Origin: Dehalococcoidia bacterium
GTDB taxonomy: Bacteria > Chloroflexota > Dehalococcoidia > Bin125
NCBI GenBank assembly: GCA_965218115.1
Contig: OZ244584.1
Coordinates: forward strand, 1,646,576-1,710,575
Reading direction: 5' to 3'
DNA length: 64,000 nucleotides
The translations under genes and the position numbers were made by a program. The notes under the pieces were generated by a model. The model worked only from the letters and a program-made list of their open reading frames with translations. It searched no databases and was not told the origin of the DNA. The stretch's first letter is position 1; the number at the start of each line of letters is the position of its first letter. Below are positions 12,792 to 59,867 of the stretch, one piece after another.

Positions 12792-13364
12792 TCAACGAGG
12801 AGGGGAAATCCGCTGAGCACTCTGCCATGAGGTCAGTCGCCGGACGCCCACGTTCCAGACAGCGAATGCTGCAAGGAACACACCCTTAGGAATCCCGCCG
12901 GACACAGTCTTCGGCTCCATTGCGTACCTCCAATCGACGAATGCAGTGTCCGCCGTGGCGAAGACCACGTCGATGTCGTGCTCGCTCCACCACGACGCCC
13001 ACTGTGCCTGTATGGCAGCAAACTCCGCTCGGACCTCGTCTTGTACGTCTTGGTCGAGCCGTTCGAACAGCGTATGTAGGCCATGCGTACCACGCTTGCC
13101 TTTGGGATCGGCTCCCGGATCTGTCTGTGCGATGAGTGTCTTGATCGCGATCTCCGCTCCGTGTGTCGTCAAGAGGATCGCCGACGTCTGGATGCCGAGT
13201 TCGCTCGGGTGTTCCTCCTTCGCATCGACGCGTTGCCTCATGTGTGGCTCCGCTTTTTCGATCACCATTTTCATTACTTCGAGCTCACCCAACAAGGATT
13301 TGAGCGCCAGCGGCACGTTCCAGTGAGGGTTTATGCTCGGTCCGCCCAGATACCAATGAGCCAC
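12792..13364 (-). CDS. Hypothetical protein in a lower-GC patch, with a possible HEPN-like Rx5H motif
   Basis: 190 aa. The region is visibly more AT-rich than the flanking genes. It contains KRGTHGLHTLFERL, and no confident family assignment was possible. Confidence 0.4.
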   Translation of the reverse strand: MAHWYLGGPSINPHWNVPLALKSLLGELEVMKMVIEKAEPHMRQRVDAKEEHPSELGIQTSAILLTTHGAEIAIKTLIAQTDPGADPKGKRGTHGLHTLFERLDQDVQDEVRAEFAAIQAQWASWWSEHDIDVVFATADTAFVDWRYAMEPKTVSGGIPKGVFLAAFAVWNVGVRRLTSWQSAQRISPPR

Positions 13365-13701
13365 CGTATGTCCCTTCGACTCAGATATATGATTATGCCA
13401 CAGCTCTCAACGATGTTGGGTGGCTTTCCGTTTGGATGATGCGACGTGCATGTCTCACCAGGTGCTGAGTCACATGCGTGTGGTGAGACCCCACAGATAG
13501 GATCGGCGACGTTGGGCTGGACGCTGCCGCCGCGGATGCCGGTGGCATCTGGGATGGTGTGCTCTGCTCGCTTATTGACACACAGAGCGCTGCGGCCTAC
13601 TCGCCGATGTACCAATATGATTCGTCGAGCTAGTCTAGCGTCTTGTCCCGCCTCGCCAACCAGGGGACTGTGAAGCGTTCGAGGGCCGCGACCAGACCTA
13701 T

Positions 13702-15687
13702 TCACATACTGAGGCCCAGATCGCGCAGGAAGGCTTCGGGGGAGGGGTCGCGGCCGAGGAAGCTGCGGACTAGCTGCTCGCCATCCTGGGCGCCGCCTCG
13801 TTCGAGGATTGCGGAGCGGTATTCACGGCCGACCGACTCTGGGGATGCCGCTGAGCCCTCGAATCTGGTGAACATGTCGTCGCCGTAGACGCGCGACCAG
13901 AGGTAGCCGTAGTAGCCCGCGTCGTAGCCGAAGAGGTGGCCGAAGCCGGCCTGGAAGTGCGTGTCGGGCGGGAAGGCGAAGCCGGTGATGGGGTGCAGCT
14001 CGCGCGCGATCGCGTCGGTGTCCTTGCTCGCGCCGGGGCCGTGGTAGGCGAGGTCGAGACGTGCGAAGTAGACCTGCCGCAGCGTGGCGATCCCGCTGCT
14101 CACGTACTTGGCCGCGATCAGCCGGTCGATCAGGTCGCCGGGCAGCGGGCTGCCGGTCTGCCAGTGGCGGCTGAAGCCGGCCAGCACGTCGCGCTCCCAG
14201 CACCAGTGCTCGAGCATCTGCGAGGGCGCCTCGACGAAGTCGCGTTCGACGCGGGTGCCGGAGAAGCGGGTGAAGCGCGCGCGCGTCAGCGTCTGGTGCA
14301 GGATGTGTCCGAACTCGTGGAAGAGCGTGACCACCTCGGTGTGGCGCAGCAGCGAGGGCGAGCTCTCGGTCGGCTTGGTGAAGTTGGCGACGATCGCCGA
14401 GACGGGTCGCTGGTAGCCGCCACCGGCGAGGTCGCGCCCGCCGCGCAGCGTGAAGGCGGCGGCGTGGCCGAACTTGCCGGGCCGGGGGTGTAGGTCCATG
14501 TAGAAGCGCGCCAACGTCTCGCCGCCGGCGTTGTCGACGATGTCGAAGGGCCGAGCGTCGGGATGCCAGGCGTCAGCCGCGGCGTCGTCGCGCGGCACGA
14601 ACGTCACGCCGACGAGCCGCTGGTAGACGTCGAACATGCCCTCCAGCACGGCATCGAGCGGGAGGTAGGCGGCGACCTCGAAGGGGTCGACCTGGTGCTG
14701 CTCGAGCAGGACGCGGTTGGTGTAGTAGCGCCAGTCCCAGATCTTGACGTCGCCCGACGCGCCGGTGCGCCGCTCCTGTTCGCGCTTGAGCAGGTCGAGG
14801 TCGGCTGCGAGCTTGGCCCCGAGCCGAGCTTCCAGGTCGGTGAGGAACTCCATCACGCTGTCGGGCGACTTGGCCATCCGCAGCTCGAGCACGTAGGCGG
14901 CCCAGGAGGGATAGCCGAGCCGCCGCGCAATCTCGTCGCGCACGCCGATCGCTTCTTCGAGCAGCGCGATGTTATCGCCGGCTGCCTTGTTGTGGTTCTT
15001 GAGAAAGATCTCGCGTCGCAGCTCGCCGTCGTCGGCGGAGTCGAGGAAGGGGTGCAGCTCGGGGTAGTCGAGCGAGACGCGGTAGCTGGTCGCGCCGTTG
15101 TGCTCGCTGCTCTGGAGCCGCTCGATGTACGAATCGGGCAGGCCACTGAGCTGGCCGCGCGAGACCGTGATGTGGTCCTCGTAGTCGTCGATGTTGCGGC
15201 GGAACTGGATGCCGAGCCGGACCAATCGCTCGTGCAGCTCCTGCACGGCGTCGCGTTCCTTGGCGGGCAGGTCGAAGCCGTTGCGACGGTAGTCGCGCAG
15301 GCAGAACTCGAGTAGCCGAGCGGCATCGTCGGGCAGGGCCTGAGTCTCGGCGCGGGTCGCGTAGGCCTTGAGCGCGCGGTCGATCTCCTCACGAAAGCCG
15401 AGGCCGCTGGCGAACAGATCGAGGCGCTCTTCCTGCTCGTGGGCCACGCTGCGCAGGGCGGGCTCGGCCGCGACCTGCGAGAGGAATCCGAACTGACCGC
15501 TGGCCTGTCCGATCAGGTCTGAGATGCCGTCGAGCGCGAGCACGGTGTTCTCGAAGTCGCGCCGGCCATCGGGTACCGAGGCGATCGCGTCGACGTGACG
15601 CTCGGCCTCGTCGATCGTCGCTGCGACCCCGCTGCGGATGGCGTCGGCGTCGATTTCGGACCAGTTCGGCGTGTCGAGCTCAGTCAT
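13702..15687 (-). CDS. M3-family metallopeptidase (oligopeptidase A / peptidyl-dipeptidase Dcp type)
   Basis: 661 aa with the HEFGHILH zinc motif and M3-like length and layout. Confidence 0.85.
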   Translation of the reverse strand: MTELDTPNWSEIDADAIRSGVAATIDEAERHVDAIASVPDGRRDFENTVLALDGISDLIGQASGQFGFLSQVAAEPALRSVAHEQEERLDLFASGLGFREEIDRALKAYATRAETQALPDDAARLLEFCLRDYRRNGFDLPAKERDAVQELHERLVRLGIQFRRNIDDYEDHITVSRGQLSGLPDSYIERLQSSEHNGATSYRVSLDYPELHPFLDSADDGELRREIFLKNHNKAAGDNIALLEEAIGVRDEIARRLGYPSWAAYVLELRMAKSPDSVMEFLTDLEARLGAKLAADLDLLKREQERRTGASGDVKIWDWRYYTNRVLLEQHQVDPFEVAAYLPLDAVLEGMFDVYQRLVGVTFVPRDDAAADAWHPDARPFDIVDNAGGETLARFYMDLHPRPGKFGHAAAFTLRGGRDLAGGGYQRPVSAIVANFTKPTESSPSLLRHTEVVTLFHEFGHILHQTLTRARFTRFSGTRVERDFVEAPSQMLEHWCWERDVLAGFSRHWQTGSPLPGDLIDRLIAAKYVSSGIATLRQVYFARLDLAYHGPGASKDTDAIARELHPITGFAFPPDTHFQAGFGHLFGYDAGYYGYLWSRVYGDDMFTRFEGSAASPESVGREYRSAILERGGAQDGEQLVRSFLGRDPSPEAFLRDLGLSM

Positions 15688-18255: not shown

Positions 18256-19470
18256 ATGTCCACCCCCATGCTTCGTCGCTTGATTCTCAAGAGCTTTCGA
18301 AGTGTGCATGCGGCCGCGATCGATCTTGACAACCCGACGCTCCTAGTTGGGCAAAATGGCGCGGGCAAGAGCAACGTCGTCGACGCGCTTGCATTTCTGG
18401 CCGAGCTGATGTCGTCTCCGCTGTCCGCCGCATTCGACAGGCGGGGCGGAATTGCGGCAGTCCGGAATCGCCGCCTCGGACAAAGCCACCCACCGAACAT
18501 GGGATTCCGAGTGGACGTGTCGCAGCCGGACGTCAACACAAAGGAGGCTATGTACGCCTTCGACGTACGGGCACGAAAGAACTACGGCTTTGAAATAGTG
18601 AGAGAACAATGCGCCGTGGTCGACCTAGACGGGTTCACCACATGGTGGTTCGACCGGCGCCGTGATGGAGAGTTCAGCAGCAACGCAAGTTCGTTGAGCC
18701 CCGCATTGGAACCGGAAGCGCTAGCGCTTCCACTTATCGGCGGCGACTCGAGATTTAGACCCATCGTTCAGTTCCTCAGCGACATGCGAGTATACAGAAT
18801 AGAGCCGGTCGTGCTCAGGGAGATGCAGGAACCTGATAGCGGTTTGCGCCTCAACCCGGACGGTAGCAACACAGCGAGCGTGCTCAGAGAGATCGAACGG
18901 AACTCTCCTCACGGGCGTCAGCAGATACTAGCTTTGTTAGAACATATTGTCCCGAACACTGTCGATGTCAAGCCGAAAGCACACGGCAACAAGCTGGCAC
19001 TTGAGTTCGCTCAGCAATGGCCGGACGCACGGAGCATCAAATTCGAGGCCTTCAATATGTCCGACGGAACGCTTCGCGCACTCGGGCTACTGGCTGCGGT
19101 GTTCCAGCAGGCACGACCTTCCGTCTTGGTCATCGAGGAACCCGAAGCCACCATTCATCCCGGTGCGATCGAGGCCGTGCTGGATTTGTTAGAGCATGCG
19201 ACCAGAGATATGCAAGTTATCGCAACCACACATAGTCCAGACCTGCTCGATGCCAAGTGGATCGAAGATCGATTCCTCAAGATCGTCCGCTCGGAAAGGG
19301 GCGCCACAATGGTCTCCCCGGTTTCTCCAGAAGTCAGAAGCGCATTGCAACAGCACCTCATGGGAGCGGGGGAGCTTTTACGAGCGAATGCGCTGACCCC
19401 CATCAGCTCCAGCGATTTGTTCATCCGTGACCCCCGGCAGTTACGTCTTTTCGAGTCACTTTCGTCGTGA
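18256..19470 (+). CDS. ABC/AAA_21-type ATPase of the OLD/AriA-like family
   Basis: 404 aa with Walker A LLVGQNGAGKSN, the ABC signature NMSDGTLR, Walker B VLVIEEPEATIHP and the H-loop ATTHSP. An RBS (AAGGGAG) lies upstream. GC is visibly lower than in the flanks. Confidence 0.75.
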   Translation: MSTPMLRRLILKSFRSVHAAAIDLDNPTLLVGQNGAGKSNVVDALAFLAELMSSPLSAAFDRRGGIAAVRNRRLGQSHPPNMGFRVDVSQPDVNTKEAMYAFDVRARKNYGFEIVREQCAVVDLDGFTTWWFDRRRDGEFSSNASSLSPALEPEALALPLIGGDSRFRPIVQFLSDMRVYRIEPVVLREMQEPDSGLRLNPDGSNTASVLREIERNSPHGRQQILALLEHIVPNTVDVKPKAHGNKLALEFAQQWPDARSIKFEAFNMSDGTLRALGLLAAVFQQARPSVLVIEEPEATIHPGAIEAVLDLLEHATRDMQVIATTHSPDLLDAKWIEDRFLKIVRSERGATMVSPVSPEVRSALQQHLMGAGELLRANALTPISSSDLFIRDPRQLRLFESLSS

Positions 19471-20105
19471 AGATAGTCCCAGTAGTGGAGGGGGAGGGTG
19501 AAGTTAAGGCAGTGCCTATCTTATTGCGCCGGATGATTGCACTGGTAGAGGCGTTCGAATCGATACAGGTCGGCCGGCCTATCCGCAAACCGCGCAGCCA
19601 ACTAACTAAGCGCGAGGGAATGGTTGAGGTCTTGAAGCTTGCCCGCATTCAGGGGGCGGACTCGGTTTTGTGCCTCTTTGATAGCGATGGTGTATGCCCA
19701 GTCAATCTGGCAGCGTGTTTACTGAACTGGGCGAGGGAGGAAGCATCGGACTTGGACTGTCATGTGGTAGTTGCCCATCAAGAATACGAGGCGTGGTTTT
19801 TGGCATCTATTCCTTCGCTTCGAGCGCACCCTGCGATGAGAGACGATGCAGAGTGCCATCCGAATCCAGAAGCGCGTCAAGGCGCGAAAGAACAGCTACA
19901 TAGCCGCATGCAGACTGGCAGCAGTTATTCACCAACGGCTCACCAAGCGGCATTCACCGCCAGCTTTGACATGGCATCCGCATACGCACATTGTCGATCA
20001 TTTCGAAAATTGACTAGCGCATTCGGCCAGATTCTCAGTAGGGTCGATTCGAACGTTGCTCACTGGCCACCAAGAGAATGGTCGGACACGATCATCCCCG
20101 AGTAA
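19467..20105 (+). CDS. TOPRIM-like small protein (DUF4276-like), partner of the upstream ATPase
   Basis: 212 aa with a GTG start overlapping the ATPase stop (GTGA). The N-terminus KIVPVVEGEGE resembles the TOPRIM catalytic Glu strand, CLFDSDG resembles the DxD motif, and HQEYEAWFL resembles the conserved DUF4276 HEFEALLF region. Confidence 0.6.
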   Translation: MKIVPVVEGEGEVKAVPILLRRMIALVEAFESIQVGRPIRKPRSQLTKREGMVEVLKLARIQGADSVLCLFDSDGVCPVNLAACLLNWAREEASDLDCHVVVAHQEYEAWFLASIPSLRAHPAMRDDAECHPNPEARQGAKEQLHSRMQTGSSYSPTAHQAAFTASFDMASAYAHCRSFRKLTSAFGQILSRVDSNVAHWPPREWSDTIIPE

Positions 20106-21934: not shown

Positions 21935-22593
21935 GCGACGAGTCGCCCTTTCGGCCCGAACACTTCCGCAAGTACGACGAGTCCGACGACGCGCGGTTCT
22001 ATGTCGAGCCGCGCTTCGTCGCGCACATCGACGAGACCGCGATCGCGGCGCTCTCTGAGTACTACGCGCAGGTCCTGAAGCCCGAGGACCGGGTGCTCGA
22101 CCTGATGTCGTCGTGGGTCTCGCATCTCCCGGCGGGCTACCAGCCTGCGCGCGCCGTCGGCCTGGGGATGAACGCCGATGAGCTGTCGCGCAACCCGGCG
22201 CTCGACGACTGGGTGGTGCACGACCTCAATCGCGAGCCGACGCTGCCGTTCGAGGACGCCAGTTTCGACGCGGTGCTGATCGCGGTCTCGGTCCAATACC
22301 TCCAGCGTCCTTTGGAGGTCTTCGCGGAGATCGCTCGTGTGCTCGAGCCGGGCGGCCGCTGTGTCGTCTCGTTCTCGAACCGCTGCTTCCCGACCAAGGC
22401 GGTGGCGCTCTGGCAGGGCCTCAACGATTCAGGCCACGTCCAGGCGGTGGGCGCCTACTTCCAGCATGCGGGCGGCTTCGAGGCCGCCGAATGGCTCGAG
22501 CGCAAGACGCCCGGCACGGACCCGCTCTACATCGTGCAGGCGCGGACGCCGGTGGGGAACGAAGCTACTGAGCGGACGCGGTCGCCCGCTTAA
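21931..22593 (+). CDS. Class I SAM-dependent methyltransferase
   Basis: 220 aa with VLDLMSSWVSHLP…FDAVLIAVSVQYL…LEPGGRCV, which are methyltransferase motifs I and post-I. Confidence 0.7.
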   Translation: MSDESPFRPEHFRKYDESDDARFYVEPRFVAHIDETAIAALSEYYAQVLKPEDRVLDLMSSWVSHLPAGYQPARAVGLGMNADELSRNPALDDWVVHDLNREPTLPFEDASFDAVLIAVSVQYLQRPLEVFAEIARVLEPGGRCVVSFSNRCFPTKAVALWQGLNDSGHVQAVGAYFQHAGGFEAAEWLERKTPGTDPLYIVQARTPVGNEATERTRSPA

Positions 22594-23125
22594 GATTGAG
22601 CGTGAGCAACAGCTCCAGCATCTCGTCGTCGCCGATATCGGGGGGCCAGCCGTAGGCGGCGAAGACGGCGGCGTCGAGTGTTGCGTGGAGGTTGGCGAGC
22701 CAGGTGGGGCGTTCGTTGTAGAGATTGGTCAGCGTGCGCTTGCGGAGCTGTTTTTCGGCGTGTTCGTCGACGGGCAGCAGACGCGGCGGCAGCGAGGGAA
22801 TCACGTCGGGCTCCTCGCGCACCCACTCGGGCGGGTTGAGCCAGAGGCGACGCTTCGAGTCCAGCTCGCGCGCCGCCTCGCCGATGGCGTCGCGGTGGGC
22901 GCGTTGTTCGGGGGTCAGCGCATCATCGGGTGTGTTGAGCGGCCAGGGGAATGGGAAGGTCTCGAACGTGGTGGTCGGCGTGTAGCGAGGGCGGTCCTCA
23001 AGGCTGTCTCCCATTCGCAAGGACCAGAATTCGTACGCAGGTGAGTCTGGCATCGAGGCAAAGTAGACGACGCATATGTCGCGCGGACGCCGCGTCACAT
23101 GCAGCCCGTTGACCCATGAGCCCAC
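22565..23125 (-). CDS. C-terminal fragment of an MmeI/PglX-family (type IIG/IIL restriction-modification, BREX-type) enzyme
   Basis: 186 aa with TFETFPFPWP…LTNLYNERPTWLANLHATLDAAVFAAYGW…DDEMLELLLTLNLKRA, matching the conserved C-terminus of MmeI-family proteins. GC is high, as in host genes. Confidence 0.6.
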   Translation of the reverse strand: MGSWVNGLHVTRRPRDICVVYFASMPDSPAYEFWSLRMGDSLEDRPRYTPTTTFETFPFPWPLNTPDDALTPEQRAHRDAIGEAARELDSKRRLWLNPPEWVREEPDVIPSLPPRLLPVDEHAEKQLRKRTLTNLYNERPTWLANLHATLDAAVFAAYGWPPDIGDDEMLELLLTLNLKRATASAQ

Positions 23126-23270
23126 GCCTCAGGCTCCCTCCGTAGGTCACCCGCATCCCACCCGCCGCCCGAACAGGCACTACTTCGACATGCAACGCAG
23201 CGCTAGGCAGTCAGAAAGGGTCATCAGTCCCGTGGAAACACTCACATTCCACCAGGCGCATACATTTATC

Positions 23271-24194
23271 TCACGGATTTCTGTTCGTAAGGTCCTTTAA
23301 GCGACGCGTCAACATCTCTTTGAGCCCTGTCATGTTGTCGTACTCAGGGCAATTGTATTCACTTAAGTCGAAGTGGAGCTTAGTCCCTCGTTTCCGGTAT
23401 AGTATCACCCTTTTGTCAAGCGCATGAGCGTATCCGACTTCGTAGTACACGTTCGGCTTTTCATTGGTCAAGTCAGCCATGAGGAATTCGGACTTGTTGA
23501 TCCTTTCTCTGACTTTATCTGTTATTCTGCCCTCGTGTTCGATTTCATCAGCACGCACAGCGGCTATTGAGAAATCACCGAAGCAATCGCGGATCGTATT
23601 GTAAGTGTCTTCGAGACCAGGATCGTCCCGATCAATGGCCATCATGACGAATGCCGAGTTTGGTTCGTACGATGTGGTGGATTGGGGGTTGGCTCGCCAC
23701 TCTTCAGTGACGAAGGTTGGGGAGACATCGAGGAGTTCAACCAAGCCCAGTATATTTTCGATGTCGCGCTGGTAATTGCGAAGTGCGATCTTGGGATGAA
23801 CGGGCGTCGTATCTGATTGACTGGCGGGTTGAAATCCGAGCACTTCGCCCTCATCGTGCAATACTTCCGGTTCCGAAAACTCGTAAAGCCGCAACCGAAG
23901 TGATGCGCGCGTTGACTTTGTCCACGTTCCAAGGTCTCGGTGGTCAACATCGGTCACCAGGGCCGAATACTTGAGTGAGTTCGCGATTGGCTTGATCGCC
24001 TTGAGGATCTGGCTCTGGAGGTCGGCGGACTGACTTTTCAAATCATCGTCCAGCTGGGACCAGAAATGGTCAGGCTCGATTTCCCAATACGGACGCTCAT
24101 CGTCATCCAGGTGCATTGCACGTTTGAAGAAGGTTCCGCCGTCGTCTCGGATCTGGGCGAATAGGCTGCGGTAAGGGGTGAAGTCGAGAGTCAT
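23271..24194 (-). CDS. Protein with a C-terminal nucleoside 2-deoxyribosyltransferase-like / TIR-like (SLOG-superfamily) domain and an unassigned N-terminal domain
   Basis: 307 aa. The C-terminus reads FVMMAIDRDDPG…LMADLTNEKPNVYYEVGYAHALDKRVILY, which follows the NDT pattern (…D.gt.fEvGyA.algKpvi.l). GC is clearly lower than in the flanking fragments. Confidence 0.55.
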   Translation of the reverse strand: MTLDFTPYRSLFAQIRDDGGTFFKRAMHLDDDERPYWEIEPDHFWSQLDDDLKSQSADLQSQILKAIKPIANSLKYSALVTDVDHRDLGTWTKSTRASLRLRLYEFSEPEVLHDEGEVLGFQPASQSDTTPVHPKIALRNYQRDIENILGLVELLDVSPTFVTEEWRANPQSTTSYEPNSAFVMMAIDRDDPGLEDTYNTIRDCFGDFSIAAVRADEIEHEGRITDKVRERINKSEFLMADLTNEKPNVYYEVGYAHALDKRVILYRKRGTKLHFDLSEYNCPEYDNMTGLKEMLTRRLKDLTNRNP

Positions 24195-24372
24195 CTTGTT
24201 CCGCCGATGGGAAAGGTGCGCGTCTTCGGCAAGTCATTCAGCGTCATGTTGGTGGAGTTGCTGAGCATTTCCCACGCCTAAGCCTATCCAGTTCTCCCTC
24301 GCGGCCCCCCTGCGGTTCCGCTGAACGAAACCGCACCGCGCCTTCCGTGAGTGGGCTTCAATCGCCCGAACC

Positions 24373-25155
24373 CTAACACTGATTCAGGTGACAGAGGCGA
24401 ACGCGCTTTGCCGTGTCGGCTTCCGGCGGCGGCTTTCGGCTCATCAAGTCAACGTTGTCGGGTTTGTCGGCGCGCGATCCGATCAGGTCGGTGATCAGGC
24501 GCTTGGGCAGCAGACCAACGTCCTCGGCGAAGAGGCAGAACAGCACACGATTGAGGAAGTGCGCGACCGGTTCGGGTTCGTGTCCGCGTTGCTGCATGGA
24601 GCGGGCGAGTTCGGCGAACCGCGAGGCCGCCGCGTCCGTGACCTCATCGGGGGTCTGTCGCGGACGCAGCGCCTGCGGCTCGCTCATCACTGCGCGCAGG
24701 ATGCGCAGCGCTCCCGCGGTCTTGTCCCCGCCGGCAGCAAGGTCTTCGAGCGTCAGCGAGTGGATGGTGGGACGGGTGTTGGTGAAGTTGGTGTGGACCT
24801 CGATCCGGTCCATGTCGCTGACGACGAGCACGGGCGGATTCTCGAGGTCTTCGCGGTAGTCAAGCAGTTGCCGATAGGCGGCGGCGAGGTCGGCGTGGTC
24901 GCCCTTGTACTCCCAACCGAAGTGTCGGCGCTTCCAGACGTCAGCCCAACCCTGGTTCCCGGTGCTCAGTCGTTCGGCGCCAGCCTCGAAGGTGTACCGC
25001 TCACCGGTCGGGTCGGCCTCGTTTGGGGTCTGGACGCCGAGCATGCGGCAGAGGTCGATGAAGTGCTCCTGCGAGGAGGCACGCTCGCGACGGGCGTTGT
25101 CGCGCCACTTGGCGGCGAATTGGGCAGCGGAGAGTGATCCAGGCGAAGCCGCCAT
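24373..25155 (-). CDS. N-terminal fragment of an MmeI/PglX-family enzyme: PD-(D/E)xK nuclease domain plus helical spacer, with the methyltransferase core missing
   Basis: 260 aa with AAQFAAKW…FIDLCRMLGV…ADVWKRRHFGWEYKG (D…ExK), VLVVSDMDRIEVHTNFTNT and RVLFCLFAEDVGLLP. All are hallmarks of the MmeI-family N-terminus and helical domain. It ends with a stop where the methyltransferase domain should begin. Confidence 0.65.
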   Translation of the reverse strand: MAASPGSLSAAQFAAKWRDNARRERASSQEHFIDLCRMLGVQTPNEADPTGERYTFEAGAERLSTGNQGWADVWKRRHFGWEYKGDHADLAAAYRQLLDYREDLENPPVLVVSDMDRIEVHTNFTNTRPTIHSLTLEDLAAGGDKTAGALRILRAVMSEPQALRPRQTPDEVTDAAASRFAELARSMQQRGHEPEPVAHFLNRVLFCLFAEDVGLLPKRLITDLIGSRADKPDNVDLMSRKPPPEADTAKRVRLCHLNQC

Positions 25156-26201: not shown

Positions 26202-26453
26202 TCAGTCGGCAGCGTGCAGACCATCGCCCGACTTGGCCTCGGCTTCGCGGTCCGCGGTTTCGAGCGCTGCGCGCTTGATGAAACGAATCAGTGGTCCACG
26301 GGGGTGTCGGCCACGGAGGCGTTCGACCTCCTCGCGATTGAATTCAATCTCGATGCCCAGCACGCCGGGACCCTTCTTCGCAGGGTCGTAGGGAATCTCT
26401 TCCGCATCGGCGATCGGCGTGTCAATGTGCAGCTTGCTGTGTTGCTTGGTCAT
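26202..26453 (-). CDS. BrnA-like antitoxin
   Basis: 83 aa downstream of the BrnT-like gene with a 4-nt overlap. It has the conserved …IEIEFNREEVERLR…RFIKRAALE…REA…. Confidence 0.5.
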   Translation of the reverse strand: MTKQHSKLHIDTPIADAEEIPYDPAKKGPGVLGIEIEFNREEVERLRGRHPRGPLIRFIKRAALETADREAEAKSGDGLHAAD

Positions 26454-26788
26454 CGCCTGCGCATCCTTCCTCCAGGTTGATGGTATCGCGTTCGTTCCTC
26501 ATCGTCAGAAATCCAACCGGTCACCACATGGGACATCCGATCCTGGTCGGAAGGCTCCAGGACGAAGGTCAACAGGAGGCCGGTTCTGTCGGGCCCGATC
26601 ATTTTCACTCGCTCCGGCTGAAAGCGAACGTTTCCCAGCTCGTCTTCGCGTTGCCTCGCTGGTTGGGCAAAGTACTTCGCCGGTCCTTCCCAGACGTCAT
26701 CGGCGTCATCGAGCGACAGCCCGTGCGCCCAGAGTTCATCATCGCTCGCATGGTTTCCGGTCACACCGCCGTATGGGATCTCAGGCAT
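26450..26788 (-). CDS. BrnT-like (DUF497) toxin
   Basis: 112 aa with …DELWAHGLSLDDADDVW… and …MIGPDRTGLLLTFVLEP…SHVVTGWISDDEERTRY. It follows the BrnT pattern (HG[ILV]xFxxA…; R[VI]IS.R.A…E…Y) and has toxin-first gene order, as in brnTA. Confidence 0.55.
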   Translation of the reverse strand: MPEIPYGGVTGNHASDDELWAHGLSLDDADDVWEGPAKYFAQPARQREDELGNVRFQPERVKMIGPDRTGLLLTFVLEPSDQDRMSHVVTGWISDDEERTRYHQPGGRMRRR

Positions 26789-35260: not shown

Positions 35261-35881
35261 GTGAAGGCCGACCCGATCAGGCGACGTAGAACGGTGCGGT
35301 TCGATACGAGCATTCTCGTTGCGGCCATTCCTGTGGCACTAGCCGGATCTGCATACGCAGCATCACGGCCGGATACGACCACGGCGCTCTCTTACTACAG
35401 GGCGGGTGCCGATCTCAAACTTGCAGGTGAGGCAAACGCGATGTCTGTGATCCCGAAATCTGGCCCTTCACCGGTGGTCGTCGTAGGACCGGCACTCTAC
35501 GTAAGAACAACAGAGTCTATCGCGATGATCGTGTTTGAGTGCACGCCGGACGCTCTTGGGGACTTTGTCGCACTCGGCCCGCGCTCTTGTCTTGCGGGAT
35601 CAGCCGTCTCGAGCTTGGCATTGCCATCTGACAAAGCAGGCCACACTAACCACGCGGCTACTTTCACCACCGATGCAAGAGCGCTTGGAGATTTCGCCAG
35701 ATTTAGTGATGTTGAGCGGCGAAATCTCCTGCGCACCGCCCACGAACACCACTCAGAAGCTAGCACACCGATTGTGATCAGTCCAACACTCGCATCGCCG
35801 CCGCGTCCGATTGGTGTCATGTATATTTCAGGGAACTTGAAGAAGTCAGCAATCCTCAACTACTTTCTCAAGTGTCGCTGA
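35261..35881 (+). CDS. Hypothetical, probably exported, protein in a lower-GC patch
   Basis: 206 aa with an N-terminal RRRR…hydrophobic…AYAAS signal-like segment. No family was recognised. Confidence 0.35.
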   Translation: MKADPIRRRRTVRFDTSILVAAIPVALAGSAYAASRPDTTTALSYYRAGADLKLAGEANAMSVIPKSGPSPVVVVGPALYVRTTESIAMIVFECTPDALGDFVALGPRSCLAGSAVSSLALPSDKAGHTNHAATFTTDARALGDFARFSDVERRNLLRTAHEHHSEASTPIVISPTLASPPRPIGVMYISGNLKKSAILNYFLKCR

Positions 35882-46930: not shown

Positions 46931-47139
46931 TCCAACCGTCGCAGTGATTTGAGCCTATCAGCGGACGCGCCCGGAACCCGGCGCGCTTCTGTCACCACCG
47001 CTACTCGCGCTACTCGCGCCAGCCGCCTGAGTCGCGCCAGGAACGCTCTGAATGCCGGCGGGTGACGGGGGTTTGGGCAGCGCCCCGGCGGCAGTGCGGT
47101 GGAGCGCGCTCAGGCGGTCAATGCAGGAGGGCTCAGCGA

Positions 47140-47580
47140 GCGCTGACTCGGAAATGGCTCCCCCCCGAGGGGGAGCTGCGCGTAAGTCCCACTGCTCCGA
47201 CCTTCCCTGTCGGTGGCGGTGTCACGAAGTGAAGGTGGGGAGCTTCCGCTATCTGGTGAGGGGGCACCCGGAGCCCCCCTCTGCCTGCGGCATCTCCCCC
47301 CGCGGAGCGGGGGGAGAGGGGAAATGGAGATTACGCGCAGGTCTCCCGAGGGGGAGCTGCCGAAGGCAGAGGGGGAGGCCTTGCGGCGGACCACGCTGGC
47401 GGGGTTGGGAACCTCCCCCTCAGTCGCTGCGCAACAGCTCCCCCGCGGGGGGAGCAGTTGGATCGGACTGCTCGCGCGCTCCCTTAGGCGGTCGCTGCCT
47501 CGATCATCGGCGGCAGCAGCCCCCCTCTGCCTTCGGCATCTCCCCCCGCTTCGCGGGGGGAGATGGGATCCGACTTGATC
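47140..47580. repeat. Dense cluster (~440 bp) of family A REP/MITE-like elements (GGAGCCCCCCTCTGCCTGCGGCATCTCCCCCCGCGGAGCGGGGGGAGAGG etc.)
   Basis: At least five copies or partial copies were read directly. The Gly/Arg-rich ORF 47052-47759 is an artefact of these repeats. Confidence 0.7.
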
Positions 47581-47589
47581 AGAGGATTC

Positions 47590-47796
47590 CTAGCGGCGGC
47601 GGGGGTCGGGGGCGTTCTGCATCTCGGGCGGGAGCAGGTTGGGGATGCCGTCCTCGATCGGGTAGCGGAAGTCGAGCGAGCGTGAGTAGAGGTGGCCGCG
47701 GATCACCTCGCCGTCGGCGGCCTCCTGCTCGACGACGAGCTCGAGCGGCTCGTGGGTGACGGGGCAGACGAGGATCTCGACGAGTTCCTTGCGCAT
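47590..47796 (-). CDS. Trm112-family small protein (DUF343)
   Basis: 68 aa, LVEILVCPVTHEPL…. Confidence 0.7.
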   Translation of the reverse strand: MRKELVEILVCPVTHEPLELVVEQEAADGEVIRGHLYSRSLDFRYPIEDGIPNLLPPEMQNAPDPRRR

Positions 47797-49495: not shown

Positions 49496-50329
49496 ATGAA
49501 GTTCGGCATCTTCGGCCTGGGCTCGGGCGTCGCGGACCCGCAGACGATCACGACGGTCGCGCAGGCCGCTGAAGCGGCCGGCCTGGAGTCACTGTGGACG
49601 GGCGAGCATGTGGTCCTGCCCAAGCCGCGCGTCGCGCCGTCGCCGGCCGACCCCGACCTGCCGTTCCTGCATCCGTCCTCGGTGCTCAGCTATCTGGCGG
49701 CGGTCACCGAGACGGTGATGCTCGGGACCGGCGTCGTGCTGATCGCGCAGCGCAACCCGGTCGTGCTGGCGAAGGAGATCGCGAGCGCGGACGTGCTGAG
49801 CGGCGGACGGGCGATCCTCGGCGTCGGCGCGGGGTATCTGGAGCCGGAGTTCGAAGCGATCGGGGCCGACTTCCACACGCGCGGTGCGCGCACCGACGAG
49901 GCGATCGACGTGCTGCGGGCGCTCTGGAATCAGGAAGACCCGAGCTTCGACGGCGAGTTCAACGAGTTTTCAGGGATCGACGCGCATCCGCGACCGATAC
50001 AGGCCGGCGGCGTGCCGATCGTGATCGGCGGCCACAGCCGCGCCGCGCTGAGGCGCGCAGTGGAGCGGGGCCACGGATGGTACGGGTGGGCGCAGACGCC
50101 GGAGCAGACGCGCGATCTGCTCGCGAAGGTTGAGGAGATCTCGTCGACCGTCGAACGACCGGTGGAACTCGGCGAACTGGAGATCACGATCACGCCGCCG
50201 GCGCGGCTGACCGCGGAAGCGGTCGAGGACTACGCCGAGGCCGGCGTGCACCGGTTGGTCTCGCTGATGTCGCGGCAGGAGCCGGGGATGCTGCGCACGA
50301 TCGAGCTGCTGCACGAGCTCAGCGACTGA
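49496..50329 (+). CDS. LLM-class F420-dependent oxidoreductase
   Basis: 277 aa, …LESLWTGEHVVLP…GVGAGYLEPEF…. Confidence 0.75.
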   Translation: MKFGIFGLGSGVADPQTITTVAQAAEAAGLESLWTGEHVVLPKPRVAPSPADPDLPFLHPSSVLSYLAAVTETVMLGTGVVLIAQRNPVVLAKEIASADVLSGGRAILGVGAGYLEPEFEAIGADFHTRGARTDEAIDVLRALWNQEDPSFDGEFNEFSGIDAHPRPIQAGGVPIVIGGHSRAALRRAVERGHGWYGWAQTPEQTRDLLAKVEEISSTVERPVELGELEITITPPARLTAEAVEDYAEAGVHRLVSLMSRQEPGMLRTIELLHELSD

Positions 50330-56941: not shown

Positions 56942-57017
56942 TGCCCGGTAGCTCAATTGGTAGAGCGGGCGGCTGTTAACCGCTAGGTTGCGGGTTCAAG
57001 TCCTGCCCGGGCAGCCA
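56942..57017 (+). tRNA. tRNA-Asn (anticodon GTT)
   Basis: Cloverleaf by eye: TGCCCGG/CCGGGCA acceptor, GCTC-AATTGGTA-GAGC D-arm, GGCGG-ctGTTaa-CCGCT anticodon arm, GGTTCAAGTCC T-loop. The CCA end is encoded. Confidence 0.8.
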
Positions 57018-57453: not shown

Positions 57454-57867
57454 TGGGAGCGCTCCGTCTGCGACGCCGATTCTAAGTGGGGGGAGCAGGT
57501 GGTCGATTGACGCTTCGGAGCGCTGGCGCGCGTGTCGTCTGTGGCCTCGCGGCGCAGGCGGTTTGTCGATCGCTGGAGGAAGCCGGATGCGCCGGCACGC
57601 GGTCGAGATCTGCTGGAGCGACGTTGGCGATGCGTCCGTTGCTGGGGCGCATGAGCCTTCCGGGAAGATCGCGTCGCCCCGCGGTGCTAAGCACGCACGG
57701 CGTAGGCGACCGTTCTGTCGCCGCCACCCCGCCTGCTGGAGTACGCCTACGCTGAATGAGGTGCTTTGCGGCTCGGAGCTCCGCCGCCGGTTGGTGGCGT
57801 CGCGCAACGCACGAACCAACCACCCGATTCCCCTGGAGAGCCCTTGTTAGCTTCACGCGGCTCCCCG

Positions 57868-59640
57868 ATGTCGGAAGGCCCTGCACACGACATGCAAGCA
57901 GATGACGAACGAGGCGATGACGCACCGCCGACGCCTTCGGTAACTGTGGAATCGATGACATTTTCCGATGGAACGACTATTTCGCTCAACCGAGGTGATG
58001 TCGTCGTCTTCGTCGGACCGAACAATGCGGGCAAAAGCCAGGCGCTGCGTGAACTTTCACAGGTCATTTCGGATGCCAACACAGGTCCCGTCTTGAGACG
58101 TGCATCAATCAACCGATTCGGCACCGCCGGCGAAGTCTCACGGTACATCGCAGATCATTCGATCGCGGACCAACAGCCTAGGAAGCTTGTTTATCGTGGC
58201 TACCAATACGCAGTCACCGCGGCACAGATTGCTTCCATGTGGCGGGATCGCCTCGGGCAGCTCGCGCCGTTCTTTTGCCACACTATCTCCACTGCGACTC
58301 GCATTGACGCGAGCAATCCTGCGCAAGCAATCGCATTCCCGAACGAATCCCCGTCGCATCCCATTCACTCCCTGTATCGAGACGATGCTCTCGAACGTCA
58401 GGTTTCCGATTTGTTCGACCGCGCATTCGGCTTGCGCCTATTCGTCTATCGACTAGGCGGATCGCGCATCCCGCTGATCGTCGGACCTGAAGTCCAACTG
58501 AAGCCCGGCGAAGATAGGCTCTCTACGGAATACAACGTGCGCCTCCTCGATAGTACTGTGCCGCTCGAGACGCAAGGAGACGGGATGCGGAGCTTTGCGA
58601 GCGTAATCCTACATATCCTCGCCCCACTGACGGCAAGCATTGTGCTCCTCGACGAGCCTGAGGCGTTCCTGCATCCCCCGCAAGCCCGCCTGCTAGGTGA
58701 GATCATCGCGACAGAGCGGCGTGGCACATCGCAGCTTTTTGTCGCGACCCACAGTCCCGACGTCGTATACGGATTGCTAAATGTAGTCGAGAACGAGCAC
58801 CTGCGGATCATCCGACTTGAACGTGTGGGAGACGAGAACCGCATCAAGGAGCTTGATCGAGCGGGGGCATCTCAGATTGCGAGCGATCCTCTAATGAAGT
58901 ACTCGTCCGTTCTCTCTGGCGTATTTCACCAACGAGTCATCATATGCGAGTCTGACGCCGACTGCATGTTCTATGGCACGCTTCTCCACCTACCGAGCGT
59001 GCGTGGCCCCCGTCACCCAGACGTACTTTTCATCCATCCGAGCGGGAAGCACCGCATGGCGGTTCAGGTGAAGGCACTGCGATCGCTCGGCGTCCCTGTC
59101 GATGTTATCGCGGATATGGACGTCTTAAACGACGTGTCAGTGATCAAGGGTCTATTCGAAGCGTTGGGAGGCGACTGGTCCCTCGTAGAGGCGCAGGTGA
59201 AACACGTAATAGCTGCGATCGAGGAGCGGCACCCTCCCATGACGGCGGGTGACGTGGCTCGGTCGATCCAGGATGCCTTGCATGGTATGGATCATGGTGG
59301 CACTTTTCCGAAGGCTGCCCGCAGGACAATCTTAGATACGCTGCGGGATACGTCTCCGTGGAGTTTTGTGAAGAAATCTGGCGAACACGGTGGAATCCCA
59401 AGCGGTACTCCCAACGAGGAGTACCGCACTGTGCGCGGAGCTTTCGAAAGTGTCGGATTGTGGCTGGTACCGGTGGGCGAGCTTGAGGGCTTCTGCCGCA
59501 ACGTGGGTGGTCACGGGTCCGGATGGGTGCAAAGCGTGGTCGAACAGCACGACTTGGAGCAGTCGCCCGACCTAGAAGACGCACGCGTCTTCGTCCGCAA
59601 AGTGTGGACGGGGGGTGGCCGCTCGCCGACGACGGTCTGA
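57868..59640 (+). CDS. Class-1 OLD-family ATP-dependent endonuclease: ABC ATPase fused to a C-terminal TOPRIM domain
   Basis: Walker A VVVFVGPNNAGKSQ, Walker B IVLLDEPEAFLHP and H-loop VATHSP. The TOPRIM domain has a catalytic Glu (VIICESDAD) and a DxD motif (VDVIADMDVLND). GC is lower than the surroundings. The start is uncertain, with candidates at 57766, 57868 and 57955. Confidence 0.75.
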   Translation: MSEGPAHDMQADDERGDDAPPTPSVTVESMTFSDGTTISLNRGDVVVFVGPNNAGKSQALRELSQVISDANTGPVLRRASINRFGTAGEVSRYIADHSIADQQPRKLVYRGYQYAVTAAQIASMWRDRLGQLAPFFCHTISTATRIDASNPAQAIAFPNESPSHPIHSLYRDDALERQVSDLFDRAFGLRLFVYRLGGSRIPLIVGPEVQLKPGEDRLSTEYNVRLLDSTVPLETQGDGMRSFASVILHILAPLTASIVLLDEPEAFLHPPQARLLGEIIATERRGTSQLFVATHSPDVVYGLLNVVENEHLRIIRLERVGDENRIKELDRAGASQIASDPLMKYSSVLSGVFHQRVIICESDADCMFYGTLLHLPSVRGPRHPDVLFIHPSGKHRMAVQVKALRSLGVPVDVIADMDVLNDVSVIKGLFEALGGDWSLVEAQVKHVIAAIEERHPPMTAGDVARSIQDALHGMDHGGTFPKAARRTILDTLRDTSPWSFVKKSGEHGGIPSGTPNEEYRTVRGAFESVGLWLVPVGELEGFCRNVGGHGSGWVQSVVEQHDLEQSPDLEDARVFVRKVWTGGGRSPTTV

Positions 59641-59705: not shown

Positions 59706-59779
59706 TGGCTGCCGCGCCAGGATTTGAACCTGAACTAAGGGATCCAAAGTCCCTGGTGCTACCGTTACACTACGCGGCA
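59706..59779 (-). tRNA. tRNA-Gln (anticodon TTG)
   Basis: The reverse complement folds as TGCCGCG acceptor … AGGGA-ctTTGga-TCCCT anticodon arm … GGTTCAAATCC T-loop … CGCGGCA-G-CCA. Confidence 0.75.
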
Positions 59780-59780
59780 G

Positions 59781-59867
59781 TGGTACCGAGGGCCGGACTC
59801 GAACCGGCACGGGCATTACACCCAATGGTGTTTGAGACCATCGCGTCTACCATTCCGCCACCTCGGC
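59781..59867 (-). tRNA. tRNA-Leu (anticodon CAA), with a long variable arm
   Basis: The reverse complement folds as GCCGAGG acceptor, GCGG-AATGGTAG-ACGC D-arm, ATGGT-ctCAAac-ACCAT anticodon arm, a long variable arm, GGTTCGAGTCC T-loop and CCTCGGT-A-CCA. Confidence 0.75.

Follow-up and report, generated by a model that had tools for sequence, protein, structure and literature searches.

Recognition domains are exchanged by recombination between conserved flanks in type I HsdS proteins and in type IIG restriction-modification (R-M) enzymes. In MmeI the helical spacer occupies residues 156-300, the methyltransferase begins at residue 301, and cleavage requires a full-length enzyme that is bound to its site and dimerizes (PMC4833311). 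Defense genes embedded in R-M clusters are a published pattern (PMC11411939; bioRxiv 10.1101/2024.01.29.577857, Payne et al.), with PrrC in EcoprrI as a precedent (PMC3710099) and with TgvAB, from a type I R-M cluster of Vibrio cholerae, as a case that protects without the cluster, although 10- to 100-fold less against several phages (PMC11411939). NDT-like domains are known or predicted as defense effectors (PMC3710099; bioRxiv 10.1101/2023.08.16.553469). Here we describe a locus in a 64,000-nucleotide stretch of a Dehalococcoidia bacterium genome (contig OZ244584.1, forward-strand positions 1,646,576 to 1,710,575; the whole stretch is referred to as the window, and positions are counted from its first letter) in which an unrelated gene with a C-terminal domain of the NDT/TIR superfamily lies between the remaining ends of a solitary MmeI-type (type IIG/IIL) R-M gene.

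Our reading, to which we assign a probability of about 0.7, is that this is a recently inactivated solitary MmeI-family R-M gene, the remnants of which flank a self-contained candidate defense gene in a high-GC Dehalococcoidia chromosome. Compared with MmeI (PDB 5HR4), the intact ortholog of 978 amino acids (aa) has the same domain order, and the window copy retains the C-terminal helical bundle together with two motifs, D-X9-E-X-K in the nuclease and LFCLFAED in the spacer; unlike MmeI, it has no methyltransferase, only half of the spacer and next to nothing of the recognition domain, is split by foreign DNA, and cannot be a working member of the family. Compared with genes embedded in R-M, BREX (bacteriophage exclusion) and Hma clusters, the window gene likewise lies within an R-M locus, and its close homologs mostly lie between hsdM and hsdS; however, known embedded genes lie between intact genes, whereas the window gene lies inside one fused R-M reading frame, which it destroys. 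Both elements belong to kinds already known, the one a pseudogenized R-M gene of type IIG, the other an uncharacterized member of the NDT/TIR effector class, recognized through embedding.

The two ends of an MmeI-type gene

The three open reading frames (ORFs) listed in a preliminary description of this DNA are all present on the minus strand: an N-terminal remnant (24373-25155, 260 aa), an intact middle gene (23271-24194, 307 aa) and a C-terminal remnant (22565-23125, 186 aa, comprising the end of TRD-C and the C-terminal helical bundle). The MmeI remnants are two separate ORFs 1.25 kilobases (kb) apart, with the foreign gene between them. Scanning one genome per species with the N-terminal fragment yielded 80 loci, mostly from metagenome-assembled genomes of Dehalococcoidia and other Chloroflexota. 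Two of these, L002 (OZ253504.1) and L003 (OZ250140.1), share the gene order of the window (malate synthase, isocitrate lyase, two small ORFs, luciferase-like oxidoreductase, MmeI gene, methyltransferase, DinB, GFO-type oxidoreductase) at 90-97% nucleotide identity, and L011 and L023 share it at lower identity. At the position of the remnants, L002 and L003 have a single intact MmeI-like ORF of 978 and 977 aa, respectively, bearing out the earlier proposal that both ORFs are ends of one MmeI-family type IIG gene with its core replaced in situ. The L002 ortholog matches the PADLOC type IIG model at 3e-284 and MmeI itself at 1e-41, and its Pfam layout consists of MmeI_hel at aa 196-268, MmeI_Mtase at aa 379-626 and a recognition domain reaching aa 852.

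Among the 81 MmeI-like loci, the majority carry an intact gene. In 17, no single open frame holds both the N- and the C-terminal match, and seven further loci end at a contig edge or have no C-terminal match; several are from long-read assemblies, and some of the breaks may be read errors rather than pseudogenes.

The N-terminal remnant was identified as the nuclease block of the family with its spacer motif in the preliminary description, and the profile searches agree: Pfam MmeI_N matches at 4.3e-11 (43.9 bits; cut-off 27), MmeI_hel at 2.8e-8 over profile positions 2-40 of 75 only, and the PADLOC model REase_MTase_IIG (PDLC03627) at 2.6e-57 over positions 4-269 of 1136. The D-X9-E-X-K nuclease motif (ADVWKRRHFGWEYK) is intact and aligns, via the ortholog, with D70, E80 and K82 of MmeI. 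Residues 1-232 correspond to aa 1-232 of the intact L002 ortholog at 94% aa identity, homology to intact orthologs extends from residue 1 to about 240, and the final 20 or so residues are read from inserted DNA. The fragment retains the PD-(D/E)XK nuclease domain and about the first third to half of the helical spacer; the spacer and linker of L002 reach about aa 378. The break therefore sits mid-spacer, about 140 residues ahead of the Pfam methyltransferase domain (which starts at aa 379 of the ortholog), and not exactly at the start of the methyltransferase as had been supposed.

The C-terminal remnant carries the conserved C-terminus of the family, again as first described. It covers positions 888-1028 of the PADLOC type IIG model (6.2e-35), which includes the C-terminal helical bundle, and its residues 21-185 (22571-23065) correspond to aa 811-977 of L002 at 86% identity. 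Pfam MmeI_C, at 17.5 bits, is under its cut-off of 27, so that the profile matches anticipated in the preliminary description came out for MmeI_N, MmeI_hel and the PADLOC model but not for MmeI_C. A 14-aa scrap left from the target-recognition domain, WVNGLHVTRRPRD (23076-23116, minus strand; matching L002 aa 700-712), opens the ORF and is fused in frame ahead of the HELWSL region; the best nucleotide match of the scrap is in L020 (88% over 41 nucleotides [nt]).

Two lesions separate the window copy from its orthologs. The larger replaces approximately aa 241-699 of the ortholog (the whole methyltransferase together with half of the spacer and the bulk of the recognition domain), and the second is an internal deletion of about 95 aa in the C-terminal fragment (roughly ortholog aa 713-810), for a total loss of about 560 codons. 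Some 1.7 kb of spacer, methyltransferase and recognition-domain sequence has been replaced by about 1.34 kb of foreign DNA (23126-24466), which has no nucleotide match to any MmeI locus; nucleotide homology to the intact loci stops at 24467 and resumes near 22990-23050. Using seven intact orthologs as tblastn queries, we found no methyltransferase segment (DPACGSGNFL and NPPF motifs) anywhere in the 64 kb window. Of the recognition domain there remain the scrap and about 40 residues at the end of TRD-C, with no further recognition-domain sequence elsewhere in the window. We rejected the idea that excising the insert could bring the gene back, since the window does not contain the methyltransferase and recognition-domain sequences. 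The R-M function is gone, because an enzyme without these two domains can neither recognize nor methylate DNA. The decay of an R-M component, one of two possibilities raised in the preliminary description, is the best reading and is well supported because there are two lesions, essential domains are lost, and intact orthologs occupy the same position in sister genomes.

Base composition sets the insert apart, as the preliminary description had noted: the G+C content is 0.46-0.55 over 23250-24300 compared with 0.65-0.70 in the flanks, and the G+C content at third codon positions (GC3) is 0.61 in the middle gene, 0.81-0.82 in both MmeI fragments and 0.86-0.94 in host genes. At the insert junctions the only candidates for direct or inverted terminal repeats were unconvincing matches of 12-15 nt, at chance level; near the insert we found no transposase, integrase/recombinase or tRNA. 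A promoter and terminator scan returned no sigma-70-like promoter and a single weak candidate terminator; shuffled sequence yielded more, and the scan is uninformative for this phylum.

The middle gene and its relatives

The middle gene is intact and keeps every residue that is invariant in its family. Its product has at least 864 homologs, of which those listed are full-length, 300-330 aa and 43-61% identical, and most homologs carry a precomputed PF05014 match. In AlphaFold models (pLDDT, the predicted local confidence score, 82.6 for the whole protein and 89.2 for the N-terminal domain), aa 1-157 (23724-24194) form a four-helix bundle and a beta-meander, followed by a disordered linker, and aa 177-303 (23286-23666) adopt the flavodoxin-like fold of NDT/TIR-superfamily N-glycosidases, with MilB, DNPH1 and NDT as the closest folds. 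Glu252 (23439-23441), in the motif YYE[IV]GYA, is invariant in 30 homologs and aligns with the catalytic ELG glutamate of Leishmania NDT and human DNPH1. A PADLOC TIR-effector model matches at 4.7e-10 within residues 209-293, the same region as the Pfam Nuc_deoxyrib_tr match discussed below, whereas the Pfam TIR models return no match. These results uphold the earlier description of a foreign NDT/TIR-like gene in place of the MmeI core.

Set against N-glycosidases such as NDT, DNPH1 (Rcl) and MilB and against TIR-domain NADases, the protein is just 10-19% identical to solved structures. What distinguishes the protein from NDT/TIR N-glycosidases and from AbiJ-NTD-NDT fusions is its unmatched N-terminal domain of helical bundle plus beta-meander, for which we found no informative structural or sequence relative. 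Unlike the retron Ec86 NDT-like effector, the window gene has no retron reverse transcriptase or noncoding RNA nearby, and unlike Thoeris it has no ThsA partner nearby. No model in PADLOC 2.0 covers the full-length family; the TIR model is hit by the C-terminal domain only. That domain alone was matched in PHROGs, by families of uncharacterized function, and in plasmid records, at about 32% identity.

Close homologs (55-61% identity) show a recurrent setting. In four loci (L082, L083, L084 and L177) the gene lies between hsdM and hsdS, upstream of a DUF433 gene, an ORF of 107-111 aa and hsdR; in L178 the hsdM side is visible before the contig ends; in L180 the gene is in an hsdM cluster with other embedded genes; in L179 it is beside Vsr, a GHKL ATPase and a C5-methyltransferase; and the Nitrosomonas homolog stands alone. 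Six of nine close-homolog loci are therefore in type I R-M clusters (five directly after hsdM), with one more in the Vsr/GHKL/C5-methyltransferase cluster. Among more distant homologs type I R-M genes are nearby in one of 88 loci, and the neighbors are diverse (FRG, Cap4 nuclease, HEPN, TacA, resolvase and integrase genes). Because the distant homologs have no conserved neighbor, we regard the middle gene as self-contained; from these contexts it behaves as a single-gene module often lodged in R-M clusters. The DUF433 gene and the 107-111 aa gene, conserved between hsdS and hsdR in the four type I operons, form a possible second embedded module, perhaps toxin-antitoxin-like.

The working unit would be the middle gene alone, encoding a one-protein candidate anti-phage effector. 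Its N-terminal helical domain may sense or regulate, and the C-terminal domain is predicted to cleave a nucleotide N-glycosidic bond by means of Glu252; candidate substrates are NAD+ or modified or unmodified (deoxy)nucleoside monophosphates, as in MilB, DNPH1 and the retron Ec86 NDT-like effector, and the outcome would be nucleotide depletion or abortive infection. Transcription could start in the gene's own 265-nt upstream region, come by read-through from the old R-M gene, or both.

Route of replacement and competing explanations

Substitution patterns bear on the age of the event. The ratio of nonsynonymous to synonymous substitution rates (dN/dS) of the fragments is 0.09-0.18 in pairwise comparisons with L002, L003, L087 and L088, and that of flanking housekeeping genes is 0.04-0.25. 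Window-specific codon changes number three nonsynonymous and nine synonymous in the fragments, and 13 and 53 in the flanks (Fisher P = 0.70); the fragment counts depart from neutral expectation at P of about 0.006. These values leave two readings, a very recent disruption or continued constraint on the stubs. We favor a recent event because the GC3 of the insert, 0.61, is still unshifted toward the host value of about 0.9.

The edges of the lesion bear on its route. On the N-terminal side, the window is 93-100% identical to L002 and L088 as far as 24527, 87-90% in 24497-24526 and 67-70% in 24467-24496, where L012-type alleles reach 87%. There are nine mismatches in 30 nt against a background of 4.3% (P = 3e-6). 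This last MmeI-homologous DNA before the insert (24467-24526, minus strand) is of an allele type unlike the sister strains; because those strains agree with one another at 93-96% in this stretch while the window drops to 67-70%, the N edge stems from another allele. The C-terminal side shows a similar switch at about 22970: the match to L002 and L088 is 93-100% below 22969 and 53-70% across 22970-23052. Protein searches with the fragments returned neither fragment's own sequence nor the internal deletion of the C-terminal fragment, and among the C-fragment matches listed none is close over the full length; the window's own MmeI fragments are not on record as called proteins. An unfiltered representative search gave match lengths of 183-1311 aa, which does not settle whether fragmentation is widespread, and we did not use short match lengths as a sign of it, since among the matches listed in the two fragment searches none exceeds about 1.75 times the query length, a pattern that suggests a length cap.

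Most likely, a disrupted allele or core entered by homologous recombination between diverged MmeI genes, with no mobile-element enzyme involved; the allele core would have been disrupted already in the donor, or soon after the exchange. By this route about 1.3 kb of horizontally acquired low-GC DNA would have taken the place of ortholog aa 241-699, and the second deletion would have removed roughly aa 713-810, leaving the flanking ORFs as relics.

Sister strains show related turnover at this address. Intact orthologs (L002, L003, L088 and L004) are 94-99% identical in the flanking parts of the gene and 50-70% over nt 1530-2400, the recognition domain; this 30-50% divergence fits the pattern of cassette exchange between conserved flanks, and the comparison implies that specificity cassettes are frequently exchanged within the population. 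L088 has a full-length but frameshifted copy. The L087 contig, 92% identical across the neighborhood, keeps MmeI aa 1-213 and 843-978 around a different cargo, 1.8 kb of lower-GC DNA encoding an AMIN-like membrane protein and an unassigned ORF. Unlike recognition-domain swapping, the exchanged core in the window and in L087 is unrelated cargo, and the left boundary lies at about nt 630-720 rather than near nt 1530, where the recognition domain has its left edge.

This left boundary recurs. Every large-deletion MmeI remnant with DNA available, five independent ones in all, loses homology no more than about 70 nt after the LFCLFAED(V/A)GLLP codons: the window (break at about aa 240, followed by the NDT/TIR-like gene), L087 (6001-6738; aa 213, followed by the AMIN-like cargo), L065 (10013-10642; about aa 222, followed by uncharacterized low-GC DNA with one ORF that is terminase-like by eye), L181 (5932-7049; about aa 220, followed by an inverted piece covering aa 877-709, beside an IS110 element) and L182 (6001-6969; about aa 221, followed by an MNT/HepT pair). 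Remnants that keep only the N-terminal stub have toxin-antitoxin pairs downstream, directly in L182 and, as a DUF4160/DUF2442 pair, beyond the inverted MmeI piece in L181. Four of the five, all but L181, still begin at the usual start codon or close to it. With uniformly placed breaks such clustering would have a probability of about 3e-6; among 59 truncated protein matches the peak at aa 220-239 is only mild. In the protein P0188 the N-terminal part is fused in frame to the C-terminal end (GLLPK to FRYTP..FETFPFP), with the joint at these same landmarks. Ranked by nucleotide conservation, LFCLFAED comes third among the 24-mers of the gene, and conservation falls steeply after it; in the recognition-domain/C-terminal stretch ahead of the RTLTNLYNE motif, TFETFPFPW ranks highest. 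These two islands are places where crossovers between diverged alleles could resolve. Conservation explains the recurrent break in part only, because equally conserved islands attract no breaks, and we rejected a domain boundary as the reason because the break is inside the spacer (MmeI residues 156-300, PMC4833311).

Two alternatives concern the identity and integrity of the locus itself. The preliminary description had labeled the gene PglX-like, which would make it the remnant of a decayed BREX system. PglX and MmeI have a gamma-class methyltransferase motif in common, and weak PglX matches (1e-8 to 1e-4) do occur, confined to ortholog aa 376-461. The intact ortholog nevertheless reaches at most 34.4 bits on the NCBIfam PglX models (cut-offs 400-900) against its 3e-284 on the type IIG model, the window fragments match no PglX model, an MmeI-type N-terminal nuclease is present, intact orthologs stand alone between housekeeping genes, and among the other 44 window ORFs no BREX core gene, including PglZ, BrxC and BrxL, was found at E < 1e-9. 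Given these model scores, the solitary position and the lack of BREX genes in the window, the ancestral gene was a solitary MmeI-type R-M enzyme; we dropped the PglX/BREX label, and the chance that it is right is negligible. An assembly chimera is highly improbable. The window is from a metagenome-assembled genome, the exact middle protein is recorded from one contig only, and frameshifted copies in related long-read contigs (L001, L004 and L088) are possibly read errors. On the other side, one contig of 3.1 Mb holds both junctions just 1.3 kb apart, the order of the flanking genes is perfectly conserved, the MmeI frames are kept up to both junctions with the second deletion in frame, and the independent contig L087 has the same kind of event with other cargo.

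Other alternatives ask whether the parts still work together. The middle protein might be a PrrC-like guard, silenced between hsdM and hsdS by the type I enzyme and triggered when phage anti-restriction proteins disable that enzyme, so that the window copy would be orphaned, and either inactive or re-wired to the MmeI remnants. The type I contexts of the close homologs, the renewed position inside an R-M gene and the PrrC-EcoprrI precedent (PMC3710099) speak for such a guard, and a MilB/DNPH1-like fold would suit an attack on the hydroxymethyl-pyrimidine nucleotides of restriction-evading phages. We nonetheless consider it unlikely, given the solitary Nitrosomonas homolog, the diverse neighbors of the distant homologs with their single type I case, and the insert flanks, in which tblastx and blastn against the type I loci found no hsdM or hsdS remnants and aligned the middle gene only; moreover, embedding by itself does not prove dependence, since TgvAB works, if more weakly, without its cluster (PMC11411939). 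Selection might instead be keeping the nuclease and half-spacer stub as a stand-alone module that works with or alongside the cargo that follows it. Its open ORF, intact D-X9-E-X-K motif and dN/dS of 0.10-0.18 point this way, as do the five remnants, in each of which the N-terminal part is preserved and homology ends somewhere from about aa 213 to aa 240, the improbability of such clustering, and P0188. Against this, the break respects no domain boundary, the tails past it share neither sequence nor length, L181 is missing its first residues and has been rearranged beside the IS110 element, downstream content differs from locus to locus with no conserved partner, relatives of the middle gene never lie beside MmeI stubs in the loci examined, the peak among truncated proteins is mild, and MmeI cleavage needs the site-bound, dimerizing full-length enzyme (PMC4833311); a functional stub is, we judge, quite improbable. 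The preliminary description had suggested this reading, as a new co-expressed arrangement. As a conserved three-gene unit it finds no support, as the middle gene is never present in the 80 loci found with the MmeI N-terminal fragment and no MmeI fragment lies near the middle-gene relatives in just under 100 loci examined; what survives of the idea is that N-terminal stubs of the same extent recur elsewhere. More speculatively, MmeI-family genes might act as recombination scaffolds for defense cargo, with the LFCLFAED-GLLP and RYTP-FETFPFP islands as portable homology arms. The exchanged core would usually be another methyltransferase-recognition module and sometimes an unrelated gene (NDT/TIR-like here, AMIN-like in L087), no mobile-element enzyme would be needed, and selection would retain the nuclease stub (about 215-240 aa), which may itself be a working protein. 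We hold this scheme to be unlikely.

Several observations count against a recently inactivated R-M gene flanking a self-contained defense gene, and they set the limits of that reading. Both remnants are still uninterrupted reading frames that bear the signature of purifying selection, and the nuclease motif is intact, a pattern as compatible with continued function as with a recent event. N-terminal stubs that end within one 70-nt interval occur in five or more lineages, a recurrence that simple decay does not predict. The import by recombination rests on 30-60 nt, on the N-terminal side only; the C-side divergence falls in a zone already variable between sister strains and carries less weight, and protein searches with both fragments found no donor allele and no second copy of the arrangement. 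The sequence is from a metagenome-assembled genome, and its junctions are those of the assembly. The Nuc_deoxyrib_tr (PF05014) match of the middle protein, at 24.4 bits, is below the gathering cut-off of 28.8, and we infer the defense role, substrate and expression of this protein.

Other variable sites and defense-locus turnover

The same neighborhood is variable at further points. Sister loci have an extra 0.55-0.87 kb or so between the MmeI stop codon and the convergent methyltransferase gene (L002, 12969-13833; L087, 8879-9433), which in L087 includes a retropepsin-like ORF of 126-144 aa; the window is without this segment, and its positions 22534-22554 align to both sides of it. At the same spot L023 has a second copy of the pair of genes (112 and 83 aa) found in the window at 26202-26788. 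A two-gene HEC-01 candidate defense system (18256-20105, plus strand) lies between the GFO oxidoreductase and an alpha/beta hydrolase, with HEC-01A an ABC/AAA_21 ATPase (PADLOC 1e-108) and HEC-01B a DUF4276/TOPRIM-like protein (7e-61). The GC3 of the pair is 0.65 and 0.55, compared with about 0.9 in the host; the pair is also present in L087, and L002 and L003 hold a different, distantly related ATPase there. This site is a second variable defense slot, 2.5 kb from the MmeI remnant.

Farther away, a 624-aa OLD/GajA-like ATPase-TOPRIM protein (57766-59640, plus strand; PADLOC Old 8e-19, AriA 6e-21; GC3 0.64) is encoded between tRNA-Asn (56942-57017) and tRNA-Gln/tRNA-Leu (59706-59867); it probably represents a small island that integrated beside these tRNA genes. 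Other PADLOC matches among window ORFs outside 17-30 kb are to MzaA (1.9e-52), PDC-M11A/B (1e-33 to 3e-38) and mad3 (1.2e-31), and low-GC3 ORFs include 12792-13705, 35261-35881, 47052-47759 and 49594-50133. The window likely contains more small islands.

The MmeI locus itself exemplifies the ordinary, rapid turnover of defense loci, in which an R-M gene is lost and a different candidate defense gene is gained at the same chromosomal address. The 307-aa family emerges as an uncharacterized but widespread single-gene defense candidate, the substrate of which is directly testable. The repeated break of MmeI genes after one conserved motif hints at a preferred disruption route or landing site for fused R-M genes; such a route, if true, would bear on how defense repertoires are exchanged in bacteria with few classical mobile elements.

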